Under the pieces are notes generated by a model. The model was given only the letters and a program-made list of their open reading frames with translations. It was not told where the DNA came from and searched no databases. From a virus, in IMG/VR virus record IMGVR_UViG_3300037882_002000, positions 1 to 59,960 of that record: 59,960 nucleotides of DNA; one strand, given 5' to 3'. This document shows positions 1,145 through 45,639 of this stretch, one piece after another; position 1 is the stretch's first letter; each line of letters begins with the position of its first letter. The position numbers and the translations under genes are program-made.

Positions 1145-4100
1145 ATGGTAAGCACCAATAATCCCACAGAGGACATGATAAAGGAGCTTATTGCTTCTGG
1201 TGACCTCGATCCCGCTACCCTGGAGCAGGACTCACCATTCACTGACCTCAATACCTCCCCTGATATTGTAAGTTATCGGATTCCTTCCGAGACTGCGCGA
1301 AAGATCGCGCCTACGCAGGACACCGCGCCTGCCTTCCCCCCTTCTTTTGAACTCGCTGACAACTCCCTCAGGCAGCAAACCGCTGTTTCTCCGTCGGTTA
1401 CTCCTCCTGTTGAAGATGAATACGGGAAAGTCAGAAGACTTGTCAAAGCCCGTTACGGCGTTGATCTTCCTGATGCTCCCGCCGCAACCGAGCAACCACC
1501 CGAAGAGCCGGAAGTTGATTACGAGGTGGTCCGTCAGCAGGCGAAACAAAAGTACGGTATTGATCTCCCACCACTTTCCAGCAGCTTCACCTCCAGCGCG
1601 AAGGCTTTTGGCCGTAGCGTGGTAGAGAGTAGTGCTGAATCACTTCTGAAGGGTCCAGCTGAGGTTGGTACGTTTGTAGCGAACTCAGGTGATATAAACA
1701 CAGTCTCTAGGGCGCAGTCGGTTCTGGATGCCTTTGACAAACTCGATGAAGACCGTCTACCAGAGGGCACCGGCGATCTCTCGTTTGAGGCGCAGAACGC
1801 CATCTATTACTACAATAAACTCTTGAATGATCCGTCCGTTCCACTTGAAGACCGTATCAGTAAGAAAGAGCAGCTACGGGAAAAATGGGCGGGGAAACTC
1901 TTATCATCCACCTCATCCGTAGAAGGCGCGGCGGAGAGGCTACAAGAAAATCCCTTGATGCAGGCTGGTGAGCGAGTTGATGAGTGGAAAGAAAGCTCCA
2001 TGCCGATGACGGAGGAGGAACAGGGTAGAACTTCCAGTAAACTCGCTGGCGCTATCGGTTCAGCAGTTCCAATGTTGGCGACTGGAGTTGCAGGGAGCGC
2101 CACGCGCATTCTTGGAAAATCCGCGATTACTCGCGGTGCTGGTAGCCTTCTTCAGAAATCCATGGTGCCGCAAGGTATGGTGAGTCAGGCTTCTATCGGG
2201 TATGATGACGCTATAGAATCTGGCGCGAGTCCATCCCAGGCGCTTACTTCTTCCGGTGCAAACTTCCTTATCGGTGCCAGTGAAGGTGTCCCTATTGGTA
2301 GAGGTATCGAGCGCGGGCTTGACGCAGCGAAGGATTACTTCCGTATGGCACGCAGTGCAGGCTTGAGCGTTGAAGAATCTCTTCCTGGTGCGATTAGTTA
2401 TTACGGAAAAGCAATAGCCTTACAGGCCGCCGAGGAAGGCGCGCAGGAAGGTGGTAGCCAGGCTGCTTCAAATTATGTGGCTTCAGATATCGCCGGGTAC
2501 GATCCAGATAGGAATATACTGGAAGGCACCGGTGAGGGCGCGGCTACTGGCGGCGCGGTAGGCGGTCTATTCGGTGCAGTTGGTGCTTTCGCTGGCCGTA
2601 GAATTCATAAAGCGCGCACCCACGCACAAACTGGGCAGCCACTACCAGGCGAGGAATCCGAAGATCCCGCCACTCCACCGCCACCGCCTGGTGCCCCAGG
2701 ACAATCCCCAGCAGCTTCAGTGGATATCATCCCAGAAGACCAACTAGAGCCTGATGTGCAGGATAAGATTCAGAGCATCGACGATGTGATTAACCCACCG
2801 AGTGAGAAGTACCCCACGAAGGTCACCATCCCGAACCCTGAGGTTAAGTTGCCGCCGGTGACGCAGCAGGAGATCGATGATCTGGTGTTTGACGAGATAC
2901 CGTCGGAAGCACCCACTGCCCCTGAAGAGCCGCAGGTTATACCGCAGATCGACGCTGAAGGTAATACAGTAGGACAATCATACTTTGAGCCGGACACTCA
3001 GTACAGTGAGCCGATTACACCGGAGCGCACCCTCCAGGATATCATAGCCAGCAGGAAGCCAGTCCGTGCTAACACAGCAGAAGATGTGGCGATTGCAGGC
3101 GTGCGCGCGGCCACATCCCCCCTCAACGATCAAGCCGAACCCACTGAAGCACAGAAGCGCGAAGGAAATTATAAAAAGGCGCACATCAACGTCCAGGGTT
3201 TAAACATCACCCTTGAGAATCCGCGCGGCAGCACTCGCTCAGGAATGGATGAGGCTGGTAACCCATGGTCAACCACTATGGAGCACGACTACGGCTACAT
3301 CAAAGGCACCACCGGCAAGGACGGGGAGCACGTTGATACCTATATCGGGCCAGAGCCGCAAGCCACCACCGTGTATGTATTCGACACCAAGAACCCCACT
3401 ACTGGTAAATTCGACGAAGCAAAAGTCTTTATAGGATTCAAGAGCCGTGAAGAAGCTGATGTGGCCTTCGGTAAAGCGTACCCCGGCCAGGCAGCCGAGA
3501 GATTCATGGGTGCTGCTGAGATGGATATGCCACAGTTCAAACGGTGGGTGAAGTCAGGCCGTGCACGTCAACCAATAACTAAGCAGCCAAAACCTACGGC
3601 AGCTGCACCAAATGTAGCTGTAAATGCACCAGTAGGTCAGCAAACTGCACAAGTAACCACCCAAAAGCCCCAAGTAGCTCCACCTTCGTCAACCGCCCCA
3701 GCCATCGAGCAGGGGCAGCAGAAGTCACTTGAAGTGATGAAGCAAGCGGTAGAGCCGCAGACCCCCGGCCCAGTGATCGAGATGAAGCAGAGGAAGCGGC
3801 CAACCGGCAAAGGAAAGCCGAAAGACCTCCTCCGGTTCATTGCTTCCATCGGCGGCATCCAGGATGAACGTGGAGACCTCAGAGACCTCAGGGATGTGTT
3901 TATCCCAGGCCATGGCAAGTTGATCCGCGATAATGGCGTGCAGGCGGACTACGCACGCGAGGCAGCGCAGGAAGCTGGATATGAAGGCGCGGAGGAACTC
4001 AGTACATTCTACGAAGCCCTATATGAAGCCCGGCGTGGTAAGGCCCACTACTCCAGCCGCGATCAAGGTCGCGGTGTCGAGCAGGACGTTACCAAGATGG

Positions 4101-7100
4101 AAGCAGCAAAGTCCAATCCACTCAGAGAGGCCGTTTATCAGCAGGCTGAAAACCTTGGTATTGATGCGGTAGGTAAGTCAGCGGAGGATCTTGCTGTTGA
4201 GATTGCTGAACGCGAATCAATACAGGCTGATGGCGCACATTCAGAAGAAGCCATGGAGGAAATCGCCTCACAGGCGCAGGATTATCTCCATGCCTACTTA
4301 GAGGAAACCGCCACCGAGTACGATAGTATTGAAGTTGCAGAAGAAAGTGATATACCATGGGGTGATGAAAATGGACGTGAAACAGAAACTCGATCTTCAG
4401 ATCAAGAGGAAGGAATTTCTCGAAGCGAAGGCGAAGGACAAGAACCTGACGGAGGAGCAGAAGAAGCACTTCCAGAACGCGATCAAGATACAGGGGTTCG
4501 CAGTAGTGGCGGGGAAGAAAGCGGTGCGGTACGCCAACAGCCAGAAGGCGAAATAGAGCAGACCGCAGCCGGTGAGCAGCGAGTGATCGCAGGTGCATCA
4601 AAGATCACCCAAAAAGAACAAGCCGCCAGAGGCGCAGAGAAGCCGCTGAAAGCGAAAGTAGCCCAGAAGGGTATGCAGGGGGCGACCAACCTCTTTGACC
4701 AGTCTGAGAACCAGGAGCAAGACCTTTTTCGTGAGCCTACGAAAATGGTATCCGATGCAACCACCACGCCTGCAACACCAGCCCCTGTAGAGCCTAGTGT
4801 TTCTGAAAGCCAAACTCCTTACTCCCTGGAAGAGCATAAGCGGAATCGCTCAAAGTTAGACACCGGGGAGTTCTCTGCTGAGGAAGTCCGAGGCCTGTTC
4901 GCTCGTGCGATGGAGGGCCGTGCCGCTATCATGGAGTCAATGAAGAAGCTCACCAAAGAGCAAATCGGAAAAGAGTACGGGGTTCATAATGGTGCGTATG
5001 GCCGTAGCTCAACCAAAGAATGGTTGATGAAACAGGCATTCGACAGGATGCTCTCAGACTTCTACTACGGCGAGTCCTTTATGTGGTCACCACTCACCGA
5101 GACAGTGCAGACTGCTTATGAGCGGCTTATAGCCGCACAAACGGATGCGGATATAGCGGAAGGGGTTAAGAGCCGAGAAGCTGCAACTACACGGGCAAAA
5201 GAGATAGTTGAATCCGTAAAACGTAGCCACACCGACCCCCAGACATTGGGCGAGTATCATGCCTTTATTCGTGAATATGGTATTGGGAAACTAAGTGATG
5301 AGCAGTTGGCGAAGTATGATACCCTTTCCACAAGTGCCTCCCTGGAAGCTAAGAAACAGAAGAAACAGCAGCAGGCGGTGGTAAAAGGTGTTGAGACTCC
5401 AGCCGATATCAGCACCGAAATAATTGAGACCAAGCACACCAAAAAAGGCACAGACCTCTTTGTTGTACGCCTGAGTGATAGAGTTGAGCGCGATGTTTAT
5501 AATACCCTGAATTCCACTGCCAAAAGGCTTGGTGGGTATTACTCTTCATTCCGTGGTGCAGGTGCTACCCCTGGGTTTCAGTTCCCCACAAAGTCTTCTG
5601 CCGAATCCTTTGTCGCCGCCAGTAAAGGCGAAACCGTCACCTCCGAGAAAGGCCAGAAACCAGAAACCCGCGCCGAGAAGCTCCGTGCTACTGGTCAGGC
5701 GATGATTGATCGAGGTGAAGAATCTCTTGGGCGCGACCGCCAACAGAACACCGCCCGCCGCGCAACAATGGCGGCTGGTGCAGAAGCCAACGCAGCTGCC
5801 GAGATTGCTATGGGTAGAACCTTGCAGGCCATCGGGCAGCGAATAGAAGAAGGCACCGCCGGAGTGCTGGAGGATATTTCGGCTAGGACAGAAGTTGAGA
5901 CACTTAATGGCCTGATGCGTCAGGCGATGTACTCTTCAGACCGCTCCAAGACTGGTTTAAACCACGACGAGCGCGAGAAGCTGCGTAACCGACGATTCGA
6001 TGAATCTGACTCGCGGCAGGTGAAATACCCATACCCAAGTTTCCACGTTGATAATATTCCAAGAATCGCCGGTGAACTAGAGAAGAAGGCTGGCTATAAG
6101 CTGCTGGCACAGCACCTGATGAAGCTGCGTAAAGAGGCTCTAGCTAAAAAAGAGAATGACGTGCAGGTGCGCGATCCTAAGTACATCCTTAAGGTCAAGG
6201 AAGCTGCGGAGCAATTTGAACATACGATGGGCTGGGTGGCCGAGCAGGGAGTTGCAGACTATCTGCGCGTCCAGCGTCTGGGTCTCACCAACCTTCCATT
6301 ACTCCGCCAGGCGGTAAGAGAATACGCCAATCTACTCGCGGGCAAACCAAAGGTAGATCCGATAAAAGAGGCTGAGAGAAAACTCGCTGGCGTGAAGTAT
6401 GATGGATACTTTCCTACCCCGCCAGCCCTTGCTGAACGTATGGCCGAGGAACTTGATATAAAGCCGTCACACCGTGTGCTTGAACCTTCAGCAGGTAAAG
6501 GTTCCCTCATCGAAGCTGCTATAGCTGGCGGAGCGCGGGTTGTGAATATCGACGCTTTGGAAGCGGTAGCCGCTCTTCAAGATATACTCCGCCTCAAAGG
6601 ATTTAATGTTGTGGGTAGAGACTTCCTGGAGCACGAAGGCCAGTACGACCGCATTATAATGAACCCGCCTTTTGAGAATGGTCAGGATATAGAGCACGTC
6701 CAGCACGCCTACACCCTTCTTCCTGAGGGCGGTAAGCTGGTTGCGATAATGTCCGAGGGGCCGTTCTTCCGTGGTGATAAAAAAGCCACAAGTTTCAGGG
6801 AGTGGCTGGATACTGTCGGCGGCACATCGGAGAAACTACCGGAGGGATCATTCAAAGATAGTGATCGCTCCACCGGGGTGGCCACGCGGCTGGTGGTGAT
6901 TGAGAAGCCTTCAACAGGCGAGGTGAGGTTCAATAAATCCACCAACGAGAAGATCGACACCACAGGCTTTGTGGCGGACAAGAAAAAGCTCTTCCAGTAC
7001 GATCCCTCCCAGGAGTTTAATGAGCAGCAGGAAGCTCTCATGGAGGAAGTGGAGAGTCTGGCGCAATCGATCTTTGGTAATAAACTCAACCTGCGCTTCC

Positions 7101-10100
7101 TTCGTAAAATGGCGACGATGGATAGTGAAGAGGTATTTGGAGCCTACACCAGGGAGAGGTTCTCCAATGCCCTTGCTCACTTTGCCTCAATTTCCCTATC
7201 GGATCAAAAGGACGGTAATATCTGGAAGACAATGGGGCATGAAGGCTTGCACTTCCTGAGGTGGACGGGTGCTATTCCCGACCATTTATGGCAGGTACTG
7301 GAGCAGAAGGCGAAGTCGGAGTGGATAAAGAATTTCAACATCAAAAAGCGATACGAGAAGCACTTCCGGGATCATGTAAAATCCGACGGGACTAAGCTCA
7401 CCGAGGCTGAAGTCCAGGAGGCTTTAATCGAGGAGGCTATCGCTGAGGCTTTAGGTGAACACGTTAATGGTAACCGTGCCAAAGGTGCGATTGCTATCCT
7501 ATTCGATAAGATAAAGCGGTTCTTTGATGGTGCCCGTAGGTGGTTGAACAAGGAGGGATTCCACACAGCCGATGATATTATAGCCAAAATAGGGCGCGGT
7601 GAATTCAAACAGGATGGCGGTGTCTCTGCGGTGGTAACGACTGAAGGTGATGAAGACTCCGCAAGTTTCCAGGCGGCGTATCATGGCTCTCCGTACAAAT
7701 TTGATAAATTCACCCTTGATCACATAGGTGAGGGAGAGGGCGCACAGGCTTACGGCTGGGGGCTGTACTTCGCAGGAAACAAAGAAGTTGCGGAATTCTA
7801 CAGGAGTAAGCTCGTTAAGGGATTTTATCCAACTATCAGTGAGCTAGAATCCTGGTTCAAACCTGGTCGCGTGATCAAGGGTATGGGTGGCTACGATAAG
7901 GTGATCTCTTTCAATAAAGTTGGGAAGGATGACTGGTCTGTTACGGTGATAAGAAGCGACAAGGATGGTAATCCCAGTAAGTTTGAGAAAGAGCGGACTC
8001 ATCACACCGTTCCGTTGGATGCCGACCTTGACGCATTTTTGGGAGGGAATCGTAAGCCCCGTGGAGAATTGTACAAGGTTGATATACCCGATGATAGCGA
8101 GCTCCTTCTTTGGGATAAGCCACTCAGTGAGCAGTCGGAAGCAGTAAAGGCAGCACTAGAAGCGGCTTCTGATCCCGTTGTGTCTGCGCGCATGAGTAAA
8201 ACACTGGGTAAGCCAGTTTACGCGATAGGAAGTGGGTATTTCGATCTCAACACAAAAGCCCGCAATTTTTACGATGAACTCTCACTTGATATGCACACCA
8301 AGCGAACGATGTCCTGGGGTGAGGAGGTGAAAGTTAAAAATGACAAGGCGGTTTCAGAGTTTCTGAATTCTCACGGCATCAAAGGCATTAAGTATCTTGA
8401 TGGTGCCAGCCGCACTAAAGGCGAAGGCCACCACAATTATGTAATCTTTGACGATGCTGCAATAAAGATCCTAGATACACACTCCAACGCCCAGGACTCC
8501 GGGGTGATGTTCCAGCGCGGCGGTGGTAAACTCACTCCGCAGGAGCAGAGGAAGAAGAAATACAGCGAAACAATCAGTGACAAGCGGCAGGAAAGCGCGA
8601 TAGACAACTCGTTCTCTTATCCTGACGAGAATATCATAGAGACTCTCTTCGACGAGAATAAGTCCATCTTTGACCCAGCTACATTCACCGGCGCGGTAAA
8701 GGGGAGTTTTTCTAACTTTAAGCGTAAGCTCCAGGAGCGGATGCAGGGCTTTAAGGATATCCAGACCGCGATTGAGAAGACTATCGGAGAGAAACTTCCT
8801 GAATCTGAGAATGTCTACCTCATTGAAGAACTCTACAGCAGCCGGGTTGGTGGCAAGTTTGATGTACTCGAACACAAAGTGAAAGAGCCTATCACAAAGC
8901 TCCTGGCGGATATTCAGTCAAAGATCAAAGACAAAGTAACGGACGGCAACGCTATCGACCAGGTGGAAGCCTTTATGATGGCACTGCACGCGCCAGAGCG
9001 GAACGCGCACATAGCCGAGAAGAACCCTAAATTTAAGGATGGCGGCGGCTCCGGTATAACCGACGCTGAAGCAGCCGCGATCATCGAAAAGGCAAAGGAG
9101 CAACCGTACTTTGAGCAGATGAAGGAAGCGGCGGCGATGGTGCGTAAGATGCTCGATCAATCTCATGAGTTAAGGTATAGCTCCGGGTTGATCTCAAAGG
9201 AATCCTACTTTGAAATAAAGGATATGTATAAGAACTACTTCCCGCTACGCGGCTTCCAGGAGGTTATTGGCAAGGACGACAACGACACCGGGCAGAGGCG
9301 CGGCAAGGGGTACGATGTACGAGGCGCGGAATACCGGCAGGCTTTCGGACGAAAGTCGCGTGCAGCGAACATCCTCACACACTCTTTCGCCATCGCTGAA
9401 GAAGTGATTATCCGCAGCGAGAAGAACCGGGTGGCCAACACTCTCCTCAACCTCGTGCTGAAGTACAAGAATCCCGATGTGTGGGAGGTGAACGAAATGG
9501 AGATGAAGCCGGTGGTGAACGCTGAAACCGGCCTCGTGGAATACCGCCCACAGATGGTGAACGACAAGCACCGCCCAGAAGATACCGTGCTCTATGCGAA
9601 GCGGAAGGGGAAAGCCTACCGTATTCACCTTAAGGATCATCGCCTGGGTAAGGCCATCCGCAACATGGATATGGACGACTCCGGTGCATTTATCAACATG
9701 ATGGGTATTGGAAGCCGATGGATCGCTTCAACCAATACCAGATATAACCCAGCTTTTGTGGTAACGAACGCGCAGCGTGACCTTATCGCCGCGTCGATCA
9801 ACCTTCAGCAATATGATATCCCTGGTCTTTCGACTAAGGTGCTAAAGACTTATCTCAAGGCGGCAGCTGGCGTGTATGGTGGCTTGCATGGTAAGGAAGC
9901 CACATACTGGCAGAAGATGCACCAGGAGTTCATTCTGGCTGGTGGTAAGGTGGCATTCAACGATATGGCAAGTATCCGGGACAGACAGAAGAAGCTCTTG
10001 AAAGAGATGAAACTACTCCAGGGTGGTGGCGTTAATAACACCCGTCGTGGATTCCGCGCTTTGATCAACTTAGTCGGTGATGCGAATGATACCGTGGAGA

Positions 10101-36890: not shown

Positions 36891-36968
36891 CGCAGGGAAG
36901 AGCAGTCTGGTTCGCTCGTCGGTTTCATAATCCGAAGGTCGTAGGTTCAAATCCTGCCCCTGCAACCA
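36891..36968 (+). tRNA. tRNA-Met (anticodon CAU, 36926..36928), initiator (fMet)-type with atypical A8 and a U31-U39 mismatch; CCA encoded
   Basis: Hand-folded cloverleaf. Acceptor CGCAGGG/CCCTGCA with a C1xA72 mismatch. D-arm GAGC-AGTCTGGTTC-GCTC. Anticodon arm TCGGT-TTCATAA-TCCGA. Variable loop AGGTC. T-arm GTAGG-TTCAAAT-CCTGC. Discriminator A plus CCA. It is almost colinear with E. coli tRNA-fMet as I recall it. Confidence 0.85.
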
Positions 36969-39194: not shown

Positions 39195-39563
39195 ATGACT
39201 GAACCACAAGAATTCATTCAGGTTGGCGAATTCACCCCTGAGTACGAGCAGCAAGTCCGAGACTTGGTGAATTCCCAGACCGGCGGGCACAATATGAACC
39301 CAGAAGCGCACCGCGTACCACAGGATAGATTACTCAGGAAGCGCACTATCGTTCGCGGTAACTGCGGTGTGGCCATTGAATTCGTTTGGGCATCTGGCCG
39401 ACAGGATGCTTACGCCATGGTGGACTTTGACGACAGCGAGATTGCACTCCGCCGCTTCACTGACCCTGAAGGCACTCAACTGATACTGGATAATCACCAG
39501 AAGTTAATCGCTAAACTTAAAGAAAGACAGGCATATGACGCAAATATCAAAGAAGCAGCTTGA
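39195..39563 (+). CDS. hypothetical head-module protein (122 aa)
   Basis: AGGAG RBS, directly after the portal gene. Confidence 0.65.
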   Translation: MTEPQEFIQVGEFTPEYEQQVRDLVNSQTGGHNMNPEAHRVPQDRLLRKRTIVRGNCGVAIEFVWASGRQDAYAMVDFDDSEIALRRFTDPEGTQLILDNHQKLIAKLKERQAYDANIKEAA

Positions 39564-39846
39564 AGCACTAGCTTCGGCGGTGTTTGACCTCCCAGAAGAT
39601 GAGCGTGGATATGCAGCGCGCTTTGTAGGGAAGAACCACCATCTTGGCCTGAAGGAACTCCTGCGGCGCTGGGAGGCAGACGCTGGCGATAGAGATGTTA
39701 GAGCCAAACTACAGGCGGCTCATATAGAGCGCGTCACTAAAGAATACGAAGATCTACCCACCCTCAAGGGTAGCGCAACAGCGAAAGTCGGCGGCATTGC
39801 TCTTACTGGCGGTATCGCGGCTGGTCACGCAGAAACAAAGGAGTAA
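39535..39846 (+). CDS. hypothetical head-module protein (103 aa)
   Basis: The ORF overlaps the upstream gene by 29 nt. Confidence 0.55.
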   Translation: MTQISKKQLEALASAVFDLPEDERGYAARFVGKNHHLGLKELLRRWEADAGDRDVRAKLQAAHIERVTKEYEDLPTLKGSATAKVGGIALTGGIAAGHAETKE

Positions 39847-39852
39847 TTTTCA

Positions 39853-40281
39853 ATGGCAATCACCACATCAATGGCGACCAGCTTCAAACAGGAGCTTATG
39901 GTCGGCACGCACAATTTCACCAACACCACTGGTGATACCTTCAAAATCGCACTCTACACCAGTTCTGCCACCCTGTCTGCGGCCACCACCGCGTACTCCG
40001 CAATCAATGAAGCATCTGGTACAAACTACACGGCTGGCGGCGCAACGCTTGTAAATGCCACCCCAACCACATCTGGCACGACCGCTTACGCTGACTTCAC
40101 TGACGCGGCTTGGGCTACCAGCACGGTAACCGCGCGTGGTTGTGGTATCTATAATTCAACGGATTCCAATAAGTGGGTGTCCGCTCACGACTTCGGTGGC
40201 GATGTAAGCACCACTGCTGGTACGTTTACCATAGTATTCCCAGCTGCTGACGCAAGTAACGCTATCCTCCGAATTGCATAA
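39853..40281 (+). CDS. hypothetical structural protein (142 aa, Thr/Ala-rich, beta-rich)
   Basis: AAGGAG RBS. The composition is typical of capsid decoration or fibre proteins. Confidence 0.65.
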   Translation: MAITTSMATSFKQELMVGTHNFTNTTGDTFKIALYTSSATLSAATTAYSAINEASGTNYTAGGATLVNATPTTSGTTAYADFTDAAWATSTVTARGCGIYNSTDSNKWVSAHDFGGDVSTTAGTFTIVFPAADASNAILRIA

Positions 40282-40293
40282 AGGGGTTGGGAT

Positions 40294-42411
40294 GTGGCCG
40301 CTAGAAGCACAGAGTATAATGAGAGTTTAGGCGAAGACAGCACTACTAGCGCGACGTACCAGGATAAGGTAGCGGTTACATTCACACCGGATGCGTCAAG
40401 TGATTATTACCTGTTTTGGTCTTGCCTAATTATCGGTGGCAGTACTTCTGAGGATGTATTCACCAGGCTGTATAATAGCACTGATGCGGTAGTCTTAGCG
40501 GAGCAAAATCAGGAGCACCGAACTACCGGTGGCACGCCATATCGTACCGCGCACGGTATAGCGAAGTTTACATCCAGTGGTTCGCCTGGCTCTACAACCT
40601 TTAAGATCCAGTACGCCAGTGAGGTTGGCGGAACTAGCTCTTTTATCAAGCAAGCACGCCTTCTCATAGTCAAGGCCCACGCCGATGATGAATATGCTGA
40701 GTATCTAACGGCGGAGACAACCACCAGTAACAGTTACGTTGACACCTCGTGCGCCCTAACATTTACGCCAGCCACCACTGGCGATTACCTGATATTTTCC
40801 AGTGCTGATCTCAAGAGTAGTTCATCTGGTGACAACTACTTTCTAAAGCTTCTCGACCCCGCCGGCGCGGCTATCGGTGAGATGAGTTGCGTCAATCGTG
40901 ATGGAACAAACTTTAATCCTTGGACGACTATGGTGAGGCAAAACCTCACTAATTCGTCAAAGACTTTCAAACTCCAGTGGCATCGAACAGCCGCAGGTAC
41001 GCTCACTCTGCAAAACCAGAGGATACTCGCTCTTCGGCTAGACACCTTTGATAACGAATATTACGCGGAAGATAGGACGCGGGCGACAACTACAAGCACC
41101 TCCTACGTCACCGATGTTACTCTGACGGCAACGCCGGAAGCCAAAGAACACATCGTTTTCAATAGTGCTTTGGTGGATAACAGTACCACGTCTGTAAGCA
41201 CGGTTTACCAGTTCTATGAGGATTCCACCGGCACTGGTGAGTTTAATCATCGGGTTAACACTGGCGAAACCTCATCAGGGCAACGCGCTCTCTTTGTCGC
41301 CTATCGAAAAACCCTGCCAGCGCAGAGTATTTCATGGACGCGCCAACACCTGGTTATCACCGGCGCGACATCGGGTATTGACGAAGATGCGATCTCAGTC
41401 ATCCAAACCGAGGCTTCAGGAGGCGGCACTGATGCAACCGGCACGTGCACTGGGGTTGCAGCCACCGGCAGTCCGGGCACAGCGACGGCCAGCGCATTCT
41501 CCCAGATCACTCTAGCGGGAGTTACTGCTACTGGTGCGCCTGGGTCGGTAACTGCGACAGCTTCTTCTCAGACCACCCTCGCTGGTGTTGCTGGGTTAGG
41601 CACCGCAGGCACAGTCACAGCGGATATTATCAAGACCCCGACTGGGGTTGAGGCCACCGGCCAGGTTGGCACGCTAACCGCCACCGCCAGCAGCCAGATA
41701 ACCCTTACTGGTGTCGCTGGTACGGGTGCAGCAGGTACAACGGCGGCCACAGCTGATGCTCCAGTAGTGATATCGGGTGTCGCTGGTACGACCGCCCTCG
41801 GCACGGTTGCCCCTACCGCGTCGTCACAGCAGGCGGTTACTGGGGTTGGTGGCACGAGTGGGGTCGGAGATGTAACGACCGATGCTTCTACTGATGCGGC
41901 GATATCGGGGGTTGGTGCGGCAGGTACACCAGGCACGATACAATCTACCGCCACCGCGAATATCACTGGTACTGGTGTGTCAGGAGATGCAGGCGCTGGC
42001 ACAGTAACCGCAGATAATGGGGTGCAAGCCCTCTACTTCGGTGGTGAGAATGAGGACTATGTTTACCGCGACCCAGACGCTGAAAGACAGCTTCTATGGG
42101 ACCGCCGCGCGCAGCTTCTGGAGACACTCTCAACTACGGTTGAGGCACTGCCTGCGTCTAAGAATGAGCCTGAGATAGCCAACTTACTGGCGTTTATCCA
42201 GGATGAGGCATCCCGTCCTTTGGTGAACTTTGAGAAAGTCAACCAGGGGATCGCCGAGCTTCATGAAAGGATCGGGTTCTACAAGAAATTACGGGAAGAT
42301 GATGAAGCGGTAGCCGCGCTACTGCTGGAGGACGAACGCCAAACACGAGGTTTAATATGCCAAATCTGCCTAAAGATATCACAAAAGCTATCGCAGCAAC
42401 CAACGATGTAA
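40294..42411 (+). CDS. fibre-like structural protein (705 aa): three tandem ~125-aa domains, nine 20-22-aa repeats, coiled-coil tail
   Basis: Three internally similar domains begin TSATYQDKVAVTFTPDASSDYYLFWS, TSNSYVDTSCALTFTPATTGDYLIFSS and TSTSYVTDVTLTATPEAKEHIVFNS. They are followed by G-V-x-G-T-G-x-x-G-T-V-T-A-x-A-S-S-Q-x-T-L repeats. Confidence 0.75.
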   Translation: MAARSTEYNESLGEDSTTSATYQDKVAVTFTPDASSDYYLFWSCLIIGGSTSEDVFTRLYNSTDAVVLAEQNQEHRTTGGTPYRTAHGIAKFTSSGSPGSTTFKIQYASEVGGTSSFIKQARLLIVKAHADDEYAEYLTAETTTSNSYVDTSCALTFTPATTGDYLIFSSADLKSSSSGDNYFLKLLDPAGAAIGEMSCVNRDGTNFNPWTTMVRQNLTNSSKTFKLQWHRTAAGTLTLQNQRILALRLDTFDNEYYAEDRTRATTTSTSYVTDVTLTATPEAKEHIVFNSALVDNSTTSVSTVYQFYEDSTGTGEFNHRVNTGETSSGQRALFVAYRKTLPAQSISWTRQHLVITGATSGIDEDAISVIQTEASGGGTDATGTCTGVAATGSPGTATASAFSQITLAGVTATGAPGSVTATASSQTTLAGVAGLGTAGTVTADIIKTPTGVEATGQVGTLTATASSQITLTGVAGTGAAGTTAATADAPVVISGVAGTTALGTVAPTASSQQAVTGVGGTSGVGDVTTDASTDAAISGVGAAGTPGTIQSTATANITGTGVSGDAGAGTVTADNGVQALYFGGENEDYVYRDPDAERQLLWDRRAQLLETLSTTVEALPASKNEPEIANLLAFIQDEASRPLVNFEKVNQGIAELHERIGFYKKLREDDEAVAALLLEDERQTRGLICQICLKISQKLSQQPTM
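41452..42015 (+). repeat. about nine diverged tandem repeats of 60-66 nt (coding, 20-22 aa each)
   Basis: Successive units start GTTGCAGCCACCGGC, GTTACTGCTACTGGT, GTTGCTGGGTTAGGC, GTTGAGGCCACCGGC, GTCGCTGGTACGGGT, GTCGCTGGTACGACC, GTTGGTGGCACGAGT, GTTGGTGCGGCAGGT and GTGTCAGGAGATGCA. Confidence 0.8.
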
Positions 42412-42662
42412 GCGACTGGGTTGAGTTACAGCCTGGCGACGGCGTGCGTATCAGTATCCCAGCGGGGATCACTGGCACCGTGAACGTGGAGAGCAGTTTT
42501 GATGGTTCTACCGCTGAAGGAGTGATCGCTGCTGAGGACGGCTCAACCAACTTCGCGGCTGGCTACCAGCTTACATTCACCGCTGCCACCCGTGAATATC
42601 TCAGGGTGAAGGGTACGTTGGTGACTAGCGGTAGTGCCACGGTCAAGATCAGGAGGAATTAA
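42357..42662 (+). CDS. hypothetical structural-module protein (101 aa)
   Basis: GAGG RBS. It overlaps the 3' end of the fibre gene by 55 nt. Confidence 0.6.
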   Translation: MPNLPKDITKAIAATNDVSDWVELQPGDGVRISIPAGITGTVNVESSFDGSTAEGVIAAEDGSTNFAAGYQLTFTAATREYLRVKGTLVTSGSATVKIRRN

Positions 42663-43123
42663 TGTTAAGAAAAGGATTAATCGGTAAGGGGATTGGATTC
42701 GCTAGTGGCTATACATCGAGCAATGCCGCAGGGACTGCTTACGCGCTGACCAACACTCCTGCTGCTTTAGATTTTGGCACTACAGACCCCAGTATAGTAA
42801 TCCCTCAGGCGGGTACTTGGTTGATACTAGCCCGTGCCCGGCTTGACAATAATGCCGCCACCTTTGCTGCTGTACGAACAGCAACGCTCAAATTAAGGCG
42901 CACCAATAATACTGCTGCCGACCTAACGAATGGCAGTGTAGCCCTTTTAACGCAGATCATTACCGCGCTGACGTTCTCCATGCCCACCATTTCTTGGTGG
43001 ACTATCTACACCACCGCGAATAGTGACGATATAATCAAAATCTTTGGTGATATCTCTGTCGTCCCCACCGCCGGATCACTTGATGCGGTGGAAGCCTCAA
43101 TTATAGCGGTTCGTATAGGTTAA
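42662..43123 (+). CDS. hypothetical structural-module protein (153 aa, beta-rich)
   Basis: AGGAGG RBS. Its sequence logic resembles the repeated N-terminal domains of the 705-aa protein. Confidence 0.65.
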   Translation: MLRKGLIGKGIGFASGYTSSNAAGTAYALTNTPAALDFGTTDPSIVIPQAGTWLILARARLDNNAATFAAVRTATLKLRRTNNTAADLTNGSVALLTQIITALTFSMPTISWWTIYTTANSDDIIKIFGDISVVPTAGSLDAVEASIIAVRIG

Positions 43124-43143
43124 ACCAGCAAAGGGTATGCACT

Positions 43144-43494
43144 GTGTTCGGAATATTTAATGGTGCAGGTAACGACCCACACAAGCCGGATGTAATCAAG
43201 GTTATCCCAGCTGATCGGGAGCACATCCGAGAGATCGCTTACGAGATAACGCTTGAGGCGTTCAGGCGGCTTGACATCGCCACCGAGGAGGACTTCAAGG
43301 ATGCCCGCCGAGATCTGGAGTTCGCGCGTAAGTGGCGCACTAGGCTTGAAGTTATGACCGGGCAGATGATTAAGATCGTGTTCGCTTTCTGCTTACTGGG
43401 GCTACTGGCCTTCTGTAGCCAGGGAGTGATCAGGGAAATTAAACATGAAATATTAAGGGGTAGTGATGCAATTAGCCAACCTGCTGCTCGTTGA
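43144..43494 (+). CDS. membrane-anchored protein (116 aa, C-terminal TM helix)
   Basis: GTG start. TM helix IVFAFCLLGLLAFCSQGVI. First gene of the inserted cassette. Confidence 0.6.
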   Translation: MFGIFNGAGNDPHKPDVIKVIPADREHIREIAYEITLEAFRRLDIATEEDFKDARRDLEFARKWRTRLEVMTGQMIKIVFAFCLLGLLAFCSQGVIREIKHEILRGSDAISQPAAR

Positions 43495-43876
43495 AGATAA
43501 CGACGATGATGCAATTTTGTTCAAATACTTCTGCGACGAACACCGGATCTGCAACAAAATTACGCGCGTCAGGACAGCCGCAGAGGCGAAGGAGCGTATC
43601 GAAGAGGGCGGAGAGTACCAGTTCGTCGTGGTAGATATCAGTCTCCCAAGTAATGGCGGGTTCGACTTCATATACTGGCTGAAGAAGCAACCTAACTACG
43701 AGAACGTGTCCATCATGGTGCTGTCTGGCAGTGAGGCAGAAGCTGATGTGATGGAAGCACAGAGACTCAACGTATGCGTCTATATGTCAAAGCCGCTGGT
43801 GGTTGAGAAGTGGTGGGAGCTTATCAAGGTTTTAAAGCACCTGCATATTGGCTTAATGTTCAGAAAGGCGGCATAA
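43466..43876 (+). CDS. stand-alone CheY-like response-regulator receiver domain (136 aa)
   Basis: LLLVEDNDDDAILF (acidic pocket), FVVVDISLP (phospho-acceptor Asp), SIMVLSGS (Ser/Thr position) and YMSKP (Lys). It is colinear with single-domain receivers of the Rcp1 type as I recall them. No output domain. Confidence 0.85.
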   Translation: MQLANLLLVEDNDDDAILFKYFCDEHRICNKITRVRTAAEAKERIEEGGEYQFVVVDISLPSNGGFDFIYWLKKQPNYENVSIMVLSGSEAEADVMEAQRLNVCVYMSKPLVVEKWWELIKVLKHLHIGLMFRKAA

Positions 43877-43878
43877 TC

Positions 43879-44604
43879 ATGACGATAGATTTTTCACCGT
43901 GGAAACTTACTCTTCCGGTAGACGTAGACGGCGGTTACGACGGCGCACCGAGAGAGATAAAGCCTATTACTGATAATTTCGAGTACCCGCCGTACTTTGA
44001 TAGGGTGGTGGACGGGGTTATCTTCAGCGCGCCAGTTGACGGCGCACACACCTCCGGTTCGCTCCGGTCGCGTAGTGAACTCCGAGAACTTATTAAAGGC
44101 ACAGAAGCCGCATGGAACCCGACCACCTACAAATATAATAAGCTGGTTGGGACCGCGCAGATGCTGGAGCTGCCATCGAAGTTGGATAATAGCGGATTTT
44201 GGTCGGTTGTGATTGGGCAGATTCACGGAAAGGATAACGAGCTTTGCCGCCTGAATTACGGCACGGATGGGTCGCTGTATTATTACAACGACAAATCCGG
44301 CAGCGCGGGCAAAGAGTTGAAGTTTATTCTGAAAGACCCGGTAGGAAAACCTTCTATCATAAAACTCGGTGAAGAATTCACGTACTATATTGTCGTTGAG
44401 GCCGGGAAGTTAAAAGTATCCGCCCTCCACAACGGCGTTAAGTACAGTGCCAGCGAAGTGATAAGTTCCTACTTCAAGAAGGACAAACTATACTACAAGG
44501 CTGGTGTTTACCCTCAGTGCAGTAACCGTGCAGGTGACAGTAAGCAAGGCAAGGGACGGGCTACCGCAAAGTTCACAGATATCCGGGTGGTGCACACACA
44601 ATAA
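43879..44604 (+). CDS. polysaccharide lyase family 7 (alginate lyase) (241 aa from ATG 43879)
   Basis: SPWKLTLP, RSRSELRE, GQIHG and LYYKAGVYPQ reproduce the PL7 signatures (R-[ST]-E-L-R-E, Q-I-H, Y-F-K-A-G-x-Y-x-Q). ATG lies 2 nt after the receiver stop. Confidence 0.85.
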   Translation: MTIDFSPWKLTLPVDVDGGYDGAPREIKPITDNFEYPPYFDRVVDGVIFSAPVDGAHTSGSLRSRSELRELIKGTEAAWNPTTYKYNKLVGTAQMLELPSKLDNSGFWSVVIGQIHGKDNELCRLNYGTDGSLYYYNDKSGSAGKELKFILKDPVGKPSIIKLGEEFTYYIVVEAGKLKVSALHNGVKYSASEVISSYFKKDKLYYKAGVYPQCSNRAGDSKQGKGRATAKFTDIRVVHTQ

Positions 44605-44725
44605 CACTCTTATCAAGTTTGCTCTCCAGCGAAGCCGGAGCGAACGGTGCTGGTATTGGTACAGCCTCGTTCTCAGAACTTGATGTTTACCACCAATTAT
44701 CAATCAACAATCTAAGGAGACCACT

Positions 44726-44950
44726 ATGTTCACCACTAAAGAAGCAGCACTAACCGCCCTCGGTAGAGGTGATGGATTCGGGAAGGATGAACTCGCTGAG
44801 CACTTACTCGTGGCTGTTGGAGCAGGCACACCCACCGGCACCGCTACAGTGCCCACCTTTGTAGGCCAGATTTACGTTGATACCACCAACCACAAGATCT
44901 ACGTTGCGGAAGATATCGATGACGTAGATGGCTTCCTGATCCTCAACTAG
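44726..44950 (+). CDS. hypothetical protein (74 aa)
   Basis: TAAGGAG-N7-ATG context shared with the major structural genes. Confidence 0.65.
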   Translation: MFTTKEAALTALGRGDGFGKDELAEHLLVAVGAGTPTGTATVPTFVGQIYVDTTNHKIYVAEDIDDVDGFLILN

Positions 44951-44959
44951 GGCTGGATC

Positions 44960-45505
44960 ATGAGCGCGCAATCCCAACCACTATCAAAGCAACAGAAGAA
45001 GGCGTTACAGCTTGCGGCGAGAGTCTCACTGTACGCCAAGAAGTTCTTTATGGTGGACGGGGATGTGAAGTCGGAGGTGATCGGCATCTGTAACCCCATC
45101 CCAGAGCAATGGGTGATGGCGGAAGAGGTGCTCCGGTTACTTCACTCCAGGCGGAAGGAATGGGATGGCGGTACTTTCCGCGTCGTACTCCACCGCGTGA
45201 AGCCAGAAGTCCGCGACCCGGTAAACGGTATATGGAACCGGTATGTGCCTACCCTCATGGAGGTTCAGTTCCTCGATCGGGATGGTGATATCCAATTCCT
45301 TATCGAGTACCCGGACGACCCGGTAACCATAATGGACAATATCGGGTGCAGCCGTATCGGTGACGAGGCTGAAGAAGCCTACAATCACTGGAAGAAGTTC
45401 CACGGCACCGTCGATATCAAGCCTGAGCAGACCTACAAGGCCGCTCAGGGTGAAAAGCCCATCACTGGCATAGACGCTCCCTCCTCAATGGTGAGTGGTG
45501 CCTGA
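44960..45505 (+). CDS. hypothetical protein (181 aa)
   Basis: Operon-packed ORF. Confidence 0.65.
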   Translation: MSAQSQPLSKQQKKALQLAARVSLYAKKFFMVDGDVKSEVIGICNPIPEQWVMAEEVLRLLHSRRKEWDGGTFRVVLHRVKPEVRDPVNGIWNRYVPTLMEVQFLDRDGDIQFLIEYPDDPVTIMDNIGCSRIGDEAEEAYNHWKKFHGTVDIKPEQTYKAAQGEKPITGIDAPSSMVSGA

Positions 45506-45639
45506 TGTGGGCAATAGAATTCTTAGTGGGTGTCATCGTGATTTACGCGGTGCACCTGGGAATAGCCATAGTCTCGATAATCCTGTTCGCAGGGTTTCTT
45601 CAGACTCTTGGCTACTTGACTGCTATCGCAATTCGATAG
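45505..45639 (+). CDS. possible small membrane protein (44 aa)
   Basis: ATG overlaps the upstream TGA. My translation is MWAIEFLVGVIVIYAVHLGIAIVSIILFAGFLQTLGYLTAIAIR. Confidence 0.3.
   Translation: MWAIEFLVGVIVIYAVHLGIAIVSIILFAGFLQTLGYLTAIAIR

Follow-up and report, generated by a model that had tools for sequence, protein, structure and literature searches.

Gene layout of the cassette

We analysed a 59,960-nt stretch of virus DNA (positions 1–59,960 of IMG/VR record IMGVR_UViG_3300037882_002000, here called the window) and in it a cassette of three genes at 43144–44604, which encode a small membrane protein (TM-A), a stand-alone response regulator receiver domain (REC) and a polysaccharide lyase of family 7 (PL7; Table 1). 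An earlier note on this DNA had described the trio as a tightly packed cassette in which a receiver may be linked to a matrix-degrading enzyme. The analysis reported here shifts the emphasis from ‘receiver + alginate lyase’ to ‘receiver + membrane partner within lysis modules’, a novel mechanism that is plausible but unproven. The packing and the three domain assignments were nonetheless borne out: the TM-A and REC genes overlap by 29 nt, PL7 starts 2 nt past the REC stop codon, Pfam recognised Response_reg and Alginate_lyase2 in the second and third products, and TM-A contains one transmembrane (TM) segment. A Shine-Dalgarno sequence (AAGGGG) lies 7 nt 5' of the REC ATG; an alternative GTG start at 43463 would yield a protein of 137 amino acids (aa). 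Because translation of REC starts within the 3' end of the TM-A gene, TM-A and REC are probably produced together. The cassette is joined to the flanking operon by overlaps, and a promoter or terminator of its own was not found.

Two further statements of the earlier note were not confirmed. The upstream genes, called ‘fibre-type’, gave no Pfam or PHROG match, and the 121-nt spacer behind PL7, considered unusual, measures 22 nt in the sister phage L002 described below. In 44605–44725 we found no terminator, no promoter and no Rfam match, and the spacer folds no better than shuffled sequences (z = -0.99). A role as terminator, promoter or RNA element was thus rejected; given the short counterpart in L002, the missing terminator and the ordinary fold, the spacer looks insignificant and appears to hold no conserved element.

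The stand-alone receiver

REC matched the Pfam family Response_reg (PF00072) at 8.9e-12, with 45.6 bits against a cut-off of 30.2. Its phospho-acceptor pocket is complete, with E10, D11, D57, S87 and K109 (K109-P110) at canonical positions, as the earlier note had read them, and Y106 is also present. Across seven sequences, E10, D57, S87 and K109 were invariant and D11 was replaced by Q in L018 only, leaving the acidic pair intact in six of the seven; the proposed check on conservation of the pocket in homologues thus came out positive for the acceptor aspartate D57 and, in L018, negative for the second acidic residue. Comparison with the L002 orthologue (73% amino-acid identity, synonymous sites saturated) gave a pN/pS of 0.21, which points clearly to purifying selection on REC. 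The AlphaFold model (pLDDT 84, pTM 0.80) adopts a (beta-alpha)5 fold, with strand and helix alternating five times, and Foldseek aligned it with many receivers at a probability of 1.0. The closest relatives in the PDB were the phytochrome-linked single-domain regulators BphR, Rcp1 and RcpA; for the BphR/Rcp proteins the profile E value was 8.6e-20 and the Foldseek E value 2e-10, at a TM-score of about 0.8.

Several narrower identities were considered and rejected. CheY chains reached about 1e-9 versus 8.6e-20 for the BphR/Rcp proteins and no che genes lie nearby, which argues against CheY proper; ‘CheY-like’ would therefore describe the fold only. A PhoB/OmpR-type regulator was dismissed as the 136-aa protein ends at helix alpha5 with no C-terminal winged helix, and the NCBIfam PhoB model scored 34 bits against a cut-off of 296. 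The cREC family (PF20274) gave 23.5 bits against a cut-off of 27, beneath the stronger PF00072 match, and none of the NAD/ADP-ribose or RNA-repair neighbours expected for cREC were seen beside REC. Membership of the cassette in a defence system was likewise rejected, a single weak PADLOC match (PDC-M60B, 3e-4) being the sole hint.

HisKA, HATPase_c and Hpt domains were absent by Pfam scan from all called open reading frames (ORFs) of at least 50 aa in the window, which may miss a few kb of the genome; within that scope, the earlier note was right that the phage encodes no histidine kinase or Hpt. REC can therefore be phosphorylated, if at all, only by donors of the host. No more than a handful of phage proteins in BFVD matched the REC model, and IMG/VR scans with REC and with the REC profile returned no relatives. 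A bacterial relative of REC adjoins a histidine kinase (L030). In another contig (L028 90-1037), the reading frame of a REC orthologue continues into about 200 aa of unrelated sequence that is glycoside-hydrolase-like by eye; this is probably a chimeric metagenome assembly and not a real fusion.

The membrane protein

TM-A has a single hydrophobic segment, residues 78–96 (Kyte-Doolittle 19-residue mean 2.34), flanked by a net charge of +3 on the N-terminal side and a neutral C-terminal side, with charges in the short C-terminal tail. From this charge pattern, the N-terminus is predicted to be cytoplasmic (N-in) and the short tail external, so that TM-A would be a tail-anchored inner-membrane protein. 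It has the build of holins and antiholins, i.e. a small protein with at least one TM segment and a charged tail. The AlphaFold model consists of a low-confidence N-terminus, a helix at 25–43 and one long helix at 48–110; the N-terminal motif MFGIFNG.G..PHKP is conserved. No Pfam family was matched, and among PHROGs there was only a weak match to phrog_6420. A role of TM-A as an Hpt- or DHp-like phosphotransfer helix was rejected, since the conserved His13 falls into the proline-rich, low-confidence PHKP segment and a four-helix bundle is lacking.

TM-A and REC as a putative conserved unit

Relatives of TM-A were sought by a word-indexed search and by a full HMMER profile search of 1.84 billion representative proteins and, in the opposite direction, by searching JGI metagenomes with a REC profile; the frameshifted loci L025 and L029 and the chimera-like L028 were used only for TM-A presence. 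The word-indexed search retrieved only three TM-A proteins, and a REC orthologue was present on the contig of each. The HMMER search gave nine matches, and all three proteins between 1e-8 and 1e-16 (P0128, P0129, P0130) are followed by an overlapping REC orthologue. Conversely, in the JGI metagenomes TM-A lies upstream of REC wherever upstream sequence exists. The genes overlap by 29 nt in four of six loci (window, L002, L017, L018), by 35 nt in L019 and by 38 nt in L026, and the REC orthologues share LLVED, ICNK, D57, S87, KP and EKWW...H.G.MV..AA. Co-occurrence in every checkable locus suggests that the conserved unit is TM-A plus REC.

The gene that follows REC changes from locus to locus. 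In L018, tail-fibre-like genes precede TM-A and REC, which are followed by a Peptidase_M15_4 endolysin (phrog_465, 1e-56), a 65-aa membrane protein and an i-spanin-like gene with an embedded lipoprotein-like ORF. DUF5675 takes the position behind REC in L019; small membrane proteins, then spanins and lysozyme, follow in L017 (a 70-aa membrane protein directly after REC), L026 and L031. The overlapping contigs L026/L027 present, between bacterial genes on either side, TM-A, REC, a 53-aa membrane protein, a 2-TM holin-like gene, i-/o-spanin-like genes and a GH24 lysozyme; the holin-like and lysozyme genes appear split in L026, and the 2-TM holin-like gene is intact in L031. Judged by these neighbours, L026/L027 represents an orphan lysis cassette in a bacterial chromosome that has retained TM-A and REC, and it could be a domesticated, signal-gated lysis/autolysis or secretion module. 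Its flanks (cassette at L026 1-3980 / L027 1-3234) carry an alpha/beta hydrolase and an RlpA-like gene at one end and a PNPOx-like gene and YihY at the other. DUF5675 was found in endolysin position in three contigs (Table 1); two loci have it behind REC and another two in front of Phage_holin_10, and the family is probably a cell-wall hydrolase.

The link between receiver and matrix enzyme that the earlier note had drawn was not sustained by these data, as PL7 does not stand 3' of REC in the distant TM-A/REC members and receiver-free PL7 genes exist (see below). The co-occurrence of the full trio, suggested there as a check, was seen in L002, and the more distant TM-A/REC loci have no PL7 behind REC.

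A second group of TM-A relatives lacks REC. Here, the order is tailspike, an 89-aa TM protein (P0133, matching phrog_6420 at 3e-8), an endolysin (phrog_873, 3e-45) and an Rz-like spanin in L020/L021; a 92-aa TM protein (P0132) and then a GH108 endolysin in L022; and bbp3 upstream of the endolysin gene bbp2 in phage BPP-1, with a literature search on BPP-1 bbp3 yielding nothing useful. The REC-linked and REC-less groups matched one another in profile-profile comparison (hhalign probability 97.2%, E = 3.7e-11) and have in common the motif F..LG(I/V)D ... R.DL...RKWR followed by the TM segment. By gene order, the REC-less relatives appear to occupy the holin position, directly 5' of endolysins. 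Adjacency to endolysin and spanin genes, another hallmark of holins and antiholins, is seen in relatives with REC (L018, L019, L026) and without it (L020, L022, BPP-1), but not in the window, where the neighbour is PL7 and the lysis genes lie at 11572–13242.

Receivers in Alteromonas phages

The earlier note held that stand-alone phage receivers are rarely described. Several have in fact been annotated in Alteromonas phages, as ‘AMG’ or class II AMG, as ‘PhoB’ for low phosphate or as ‘CheY-like’ (PMC10579305, PMC7289586, PMC8228385), though none of them has been characterised, and the statement has to be qualified accordingly. Receivers of 125–153 aa with intact pockets occur in phages V22 (gp30), A5 (gp11), P24, R8W (gp48), H4/4, R9Y1-3, PB15 and XX1924. 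In six Alteromonas phage lineages they lie in or beside lysis genes, and in three the next gene encodes a cell-wall enzyme. R9Y1 has the order tail fibre, N-TM protein, REC and GH108 endolysin; in PB15 and XX1924, a tail-anchored TM protein and REC are followed by an M15_3 peptidase and DUF5675, respectively. In A5, REC is placed between two TM/coiled-coil proteins, followed by a 2-TM protein and an endolysin; R8W carries a holin, a small N-terminal-TM protein (gp47), REC and a 2-TM protein, and V22 a protein with a weak C92 amidase match (a cell-wall enzyme candidate), a TM protein and REC.

Independent lineages of receivers are accordingly found in the slot directly 5' of a lytic enzyme, often with 4-nt overlaps. 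When the window REC served as query, A5 gp11 and R8W gp48 were generically similar only, the others were not detected, and none fell below E = 0.03. As the receiver lineages differ, the receiver-in-lysis arrangement probably arose, or was kept, more than once. The Alteromonas receivers thus resemble REC in their location after tail-fibre genes, beside small single-pass membrane proteins and upstream of or beside an endolysin or holin, but they belong to other sequence lineages and do not have a PL7 lyase behind them. The literature searched contained no report of a receiver tied to the lysis cassette of a phage. Most receiver matches in the ‘phages’ collection fell into large or fragmentary records. 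Many records labelled as phages of Listeria, Staphylococcus, Salmonella, Enterococcus and Acinetobacter (MD-2021a) are unannotated, fragmentary or hundreds of kb long and contain ordinary bacterial response regulators; they look like bacterial contamination that inflates apparent counts of phage receivers, and receiver matches in such bacterial-looking records were excluded from our counts.

The polysaccharide lyase

PL7 matched Alginate_lyase2 (PF08787) at E = 8.1e-39, with profile positions 1–225 of 225 covering residues 3–239 of 241. The catalytic motifs RSELRE, QIH and YYKAGVYPQ are present, align with those of AlgAT5 and AlyPG and are also found in L002; matches in the PDB were AlgAT5, AlyPG and PA1167 (E = 1e-11 to 1e-14). 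The protein carries neither a carbohydrate-binding nor a virion-anchoring domain; family, motifs and domain layout agree with the earlier description as a PL7 alginate lyase devoid of a tail-attachment domain. The hydropathy of the N-terminus (0.19) indicates no signal peptide, and for want of an export signal the enzyme would reach extracellular polysaccharide only after the envelope has been breached.

Among the nearest of 120 homologues were small free PL7 genes on unrelated phage-like contigs. Those in L005/L006, L007 and L008/L009 adjoin tailspike, SGNH-esterase and lysis genes, and no receiver gene was found in these loci. PL7 is also the least conserved member of the trio relative to L002 (53% identity), and an IMG/VR scan with it gave no relatives. 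PL7 would thus seem to be an independent, mobile accessory gene. An SGNH/GDSL esterase (about 431–434 aa) lies one to three genes 5' of PL7 in three phage contigs from two unrelated lineages (Table 1), an arrangement that suggests that the two enzymes work as a pair on acetylated polyuronate, with the esterase as the deacetylase.

Genome context and the sister phage

The capsid protein of the window phage shares 42% identity with its counterparts in Pseudomonas phages KPP25 and phiR18; Bcep22-like podophages are more distant. The region had no nucleotide match in INPHARED, an exact look-up of the window proteins in the contig index gave no match, and an IMG/VR scan with the major capsid protein returned one distant locus. 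Among the called ORFs are replication and recombination genes, a P22-type portal, the capsid and a 3431-aa polyvalent protein. In phiR18, the portal is followed directly by scaffold and capsid; the approximately 6.3 kb between portal and scaffold in the window (39195–45505) therefore constitute an extra block of this lineage, which houses the cassette and whose first half differs between the window and L002. A 705-aa protein in this block has Gly/Thr/Ala-rich repeats and no family match.

The sister phage L002, a 59.5-kb Logan contig, carries the same trio in the same place (115, 137 and 236 aa); behind it come, as in the window, a 74-aa and a 179-aa gene and then scaffold and capsid. Identities between the two phages are 60% for TM-A, 73% for REC, 53% for PL7, 71% for the scaffold and 89% for the capsid, with synonymous sites saturated; the comparison indicates purifying selection on all three cassette genes, loosest on PL7. 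The gene 5' of the trio in L002 is the SGNH/GDSL esterase; the idea that the 153-aa protein upstream of the window cassette is a truncated version of it was rejected for lack of any similarity. G+C content is roughly 51% in the window versus 45% in L002 (7990-14500), with conserved gene order and saturated synonymous sites, which suggests hosts of different base composition.

The ordinary lysis cluster of the window phage occupies 11572–13242 and consists of a membrane protein, a GH24 lysozyme, Dam and a spanin-like protein (Table 1). The 124-aa holin candidate is homologous to a holin-like 106-aa protein of L031 that follows TM-A, REC and TM-B (pairwise BLASTP E = 3e-10), and the lysozyme is 58% identical over 50 aa to that of L026 (E = 1e-17), which itself has a family match of 9.1e-28. 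Kinds of lysis genes that are contiguous with TM-A/REC elsewhere thus stand apart from TM-A/REC in the window phage. The remaining rows of Table 1 list other features. The giant polyvalent protein resembles those of Bcep22-like podophages, the tRNA was the sole RNA family match in the window, and the hydrophobic 44-aa ORF is odd as a membrane peptide inside the head module.

Table 1. Positions of the cassette genes and of other features mentioned in the text
Feature	Record	Position	Strand	Remarks
TM-A (membrane protein)	window	43144..43494	+	116 aa, GTG start; ORF list
REC (stand-alone receiver)	window	43466..43876	+	136 aa, ATG start; Pfam, alignments, AF2 model
PL7 polysaccharide lyase	window	43879..44604	+	241 aa, catalytic domain only; Pfam PF08787
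Intergenic spacer	window	44605..44725	.	121 nt; not counted as functional
Membrane protein, holin candidate	window	11572..11946	+	124 aa; two hydrophobic stretches by eye; beside endolysin
GH24 endolysin	window	11943..12473	+	hydrophobic N-terminus; Pfam Phage_lysozyme 3.2e-28
Dam-type N6-adenine methyltransferase	window	12474-12896	+	inside lysis cluster, lysozyme/spanin-like gene on either side
Spanin candidate	window	12889..13242	+	117 aa, N-terminal TM + coiled coil; no family match; position and architecture only
Polyvalent protein	window	1145-11440	+	3431 aa; inorganic pyrophosphatase 6e-46, LPD38 2e-39, methyltransferase, weak ADP-ribosyltransferase
Transglutaminase-like cysteine protease (BTLCP, Peptidase_C93)	window	14400-14888	-	2.5e-10; leftward early region
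tRNA-Met (CAT)	window	36891-36968	+	between terminase and portal genes
44-aa ORF	window	45505-45639	+	nearly all hydrophobic, right before scaffold; same position and length in L002, 41% identity
SGNH/GDSL esterase upstream of PL7	L002	8308-9612
SGNH/GDSL esterase upstream of PL7	L005	6566-8702
SGNH/GDSL esterase upstream of PL7	L006	3001-5137
DUF5675 in endolysin position	L019	821-1177
DUF5675 in endolysin position	L043	2438-2836
DUF5675 in endolysin position	L005	5638-6036

Discussion

We propose that the cassette derives from a module for phage lysis (cell exit), with REC acting via TM-A on exit timing, a reading to which we assign a probability of roughly 0.45. A stand-alone receiver gene would have been inserted in one branch of a TM-A family that otherwise takes the holin position. 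TM-A and REC may form a complex at the cytoplasmic face of the membrane, with REC receiving its phosphate from host histidine kinases or from small donors, e.g. acetyl phosphate, so that its phosphorylation state would report the condition of the infected cell. This state would alter the action of TM-A, as a holin or antiholin-like regulator, on membrane permeabilisation, and the result would be a tuning of the moment of cell opening. The enzyme slot after REC would be interchangeable, filled by an M15 peptidase, DUF5675 or GH108 elsewhere and by a putative polyuronate (alginate-type) lyase here; released at lysis, PL7 may clear the matrix around the freed progeny. Going further, and with the odds somewhat against so broad a statement, several unrelated tailed-phage lineages might have wired a receiver into their lysis machinery, paired with a single-pass membrane protein and placed 5' of an envelope-degrading enzyme, thus reading host phospho-signalling or acetyl phosphate to time lysis, with a matrix lyase coupled to it in the phage studied here.

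A number of points weigh against the proposed lysis function. The mechanism is deduced wholly from gene order, and in the window the link to lysis is indirect, since about 31 kb separate the cassette, placed within the portal-to-scaffold block, from the ordinary lysis genes, and the neighbour is PL7 and not an endolysin or spanin gene. Accessory genes (morons) are known to insert preferentially beside tail-fibre and lysis genes, and adjacency alone can therefore mislead. Other holin candidates are present in several loci, so that hole formation may not be the task of TM-A itself, and the Q in place of the second acidic residue in L018 means that phosphorylation of REC may not be universal. RDJL Phi 1 gp03, a weak relative of TM-A, is not beside annotated lysis genes. 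The membrane proteins next to the Alteromonas receivers are not demonstrably homologous to TM-A by sequence (hhalign 42% for the tail-anchored partner of the PB15 receiver), and many of the metagenomic loci are short or frameshifted.

The model of the earlier note is a different one; as elaborated here, REC would serve as a decoy or phosphate sink for, or an allosteric effector on, a host two-component pathway controlling exopolysaccharide (EPS) or motility, while PL7 degrades the matrix and TM-A tethers REC near membrane kinases. The canonical, conserved pocket, combined with the absence of kinase and Hpt domains from the window, would be in line with it, as would the nearest relatives Rcp1, BphR and DivK, which are cellular single-domain regulators working by protein-protein contact, and the bacterial relative beside a histidine kinase (L030). 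It is supported by analogy: the single-domain regulator EpsW activates EPS synthesis through a membrane glycosyltransferase (PMC12802240), and phage proteins that target host two-component systems exist, such as PIT4 (PMC10714779). The model leaves unexplained, however, that the conserved neighbours are a peptidoglycan hydrolase or a lysis membrane protein rather than PL7, of which receiver-free copies exist, and that the module persists with lysis genes only in the bacterial chromosome of L026/L027. Location in the structural operon moreover suggests late expression, a poor time for host reprogramming. We consider this model unlikely, and it is no longer the best fit. Persistence in that chromosomal cassette, where TM-A and REC are kept with spanins and lysozyme only, also speaks against the notion that the pair forms a moron-type accessory module with a function outside lysis (e.g. 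in superinfection exclusion or anti-defence, or as a toxin-like membrane effector) and has lodged in a permissive region. This notion draws on the absence of the 39195–45505 block from phiR18, on the divergence of its part upstream of the cassette between the window and L002, on the weak PDC-M60B match (3e-4) and on the general knowledge that regions adjacent to tail-fibre and lysis genes are classic variable regions. Yet overlaps tie the genes into the flanking operon, they lack a separate promoter and terminator, the same slot 5' of a lytic enzyme recurs in independent receiver lineages, and the REC-less relatives of TM-A sit in holin position, which together make an unrelated module quite improbable.

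The lack of a signal peptide on PL7, whose substrate is extracellular, raises the possibility of an exporter resembling a type 10 secretion system (T10SS), with REC-gated TM-A making a limited inner-membrane lesion through which PL7 would exit, aided by wall enzymes, before full lysis. Response-regulator-controlled holin/endolysin cassettes that export signal-less enzymes are known (PMC10101115, PMC13284979), and the orphan TM-A/REC cassette in a bacterial chromosome would suit such a function. We nevertheless regard it as very unlikely: a lytic phage frees all cytoplasmic proteins at lysis regardless, no outer-membrane step is evident, and the known T10SS regulators are DNA-binding transcription factors and not bare receivers. 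Hardly any weight is given, finally, to REC being a phosphorylation-independent structural adaptor (pseudo-receiver) or to the genes being without current function. Pseudo-receivers are common (PMC12632262), the L018 orthologue has EQ for ED, and the copies in L025 and L029 are frameshifted; D57, S87 and K109 are invariant all the same, the acidic pair is intact in six of seven sequences, purifying selection is clear, and the frameshifts, found in short contigs of low coverage, may stem from errors in sequencing or assembly.

Should the proposed lysis switch prove true, an in-cassette receiver would provide direct, testable sensing of the physiological state of the host at exit and thus a class of lysis-timing control not recognised before. 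The time of lysis weighs heavily on phage fitness, and few inputs to it are known, e.g. superinfection (T4, N4) and membrane energisation. The proposal also offers an alternative function for the stand-alone genes of marine phages annotated as ‘CheY-like’, ‘PhoB’ or ‘AMG’, and it implies that a matrix depolymerase can occupy the enzyme slot in cassettes of this kind, which bears on phage spread in biofilms and on the choice of depolymerases.

Comparison with known systems

With regard to the enzyme, PL7 shares with the lyases AlgAT5 (5zqi), AlyPG (1uai) and PA1167 (1vav) a full-length catalytic domain and the R, Q/H and Y motifs, and it differs from these solved structures by its low identity; activity on alginate is a prediction. 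Like free phage depolymerases, it is encoded by a small free gene of a type found near tail-fibre, SGNH-esterase or lysis genes. The receiver has in common with BphR of D. radiodurans (6xvu), Rcp1 (1i3c), RcpA and RcpB the LLVEDN start and the long C-terminal helix. Those regulators are encoded beside their cognate histidine kinases and serve light signalling, whereas the partner of REC is a membrane protein and no kinase accompanies it; the motifs ICNK and EKWW...H.G.MV..AA of the REC family are not found in the BphR/Rcp regulators.

Among lysis regulators, the closest functional parallels would be antiholins and related proteins, such as T4 RI/RIII acting on holin T, lambda S107 and N4 gp62 acting on the pinholin gp63 (PMC12642591), which are likewise small proteins in or beside holin-endolysin-spanin genes that time permeabilisation on a signal. 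They have no receiver domain or phospho-acceptor and respond to unrelated signals, and the regulatory role of TM-A/REC is one that we infer; the ‘Receiver domain’ of N4 gp63 is a label for a mutation cluster and not a CheY-like fold (PMC12642591). In LytSR with the holin-like CidAB/LrgAB and in the T10SS under a PhoB-like regulator (PMC10101115), two-component signalling is linked with holin-type membrane proteins and with the release of enzymes that lack a signal peptide. These systems are cellular and employ DNA-binding regulators that act on transcription, whereas REC, as a bare receiver encoded within the cassette itself, would have to act protein to protein.

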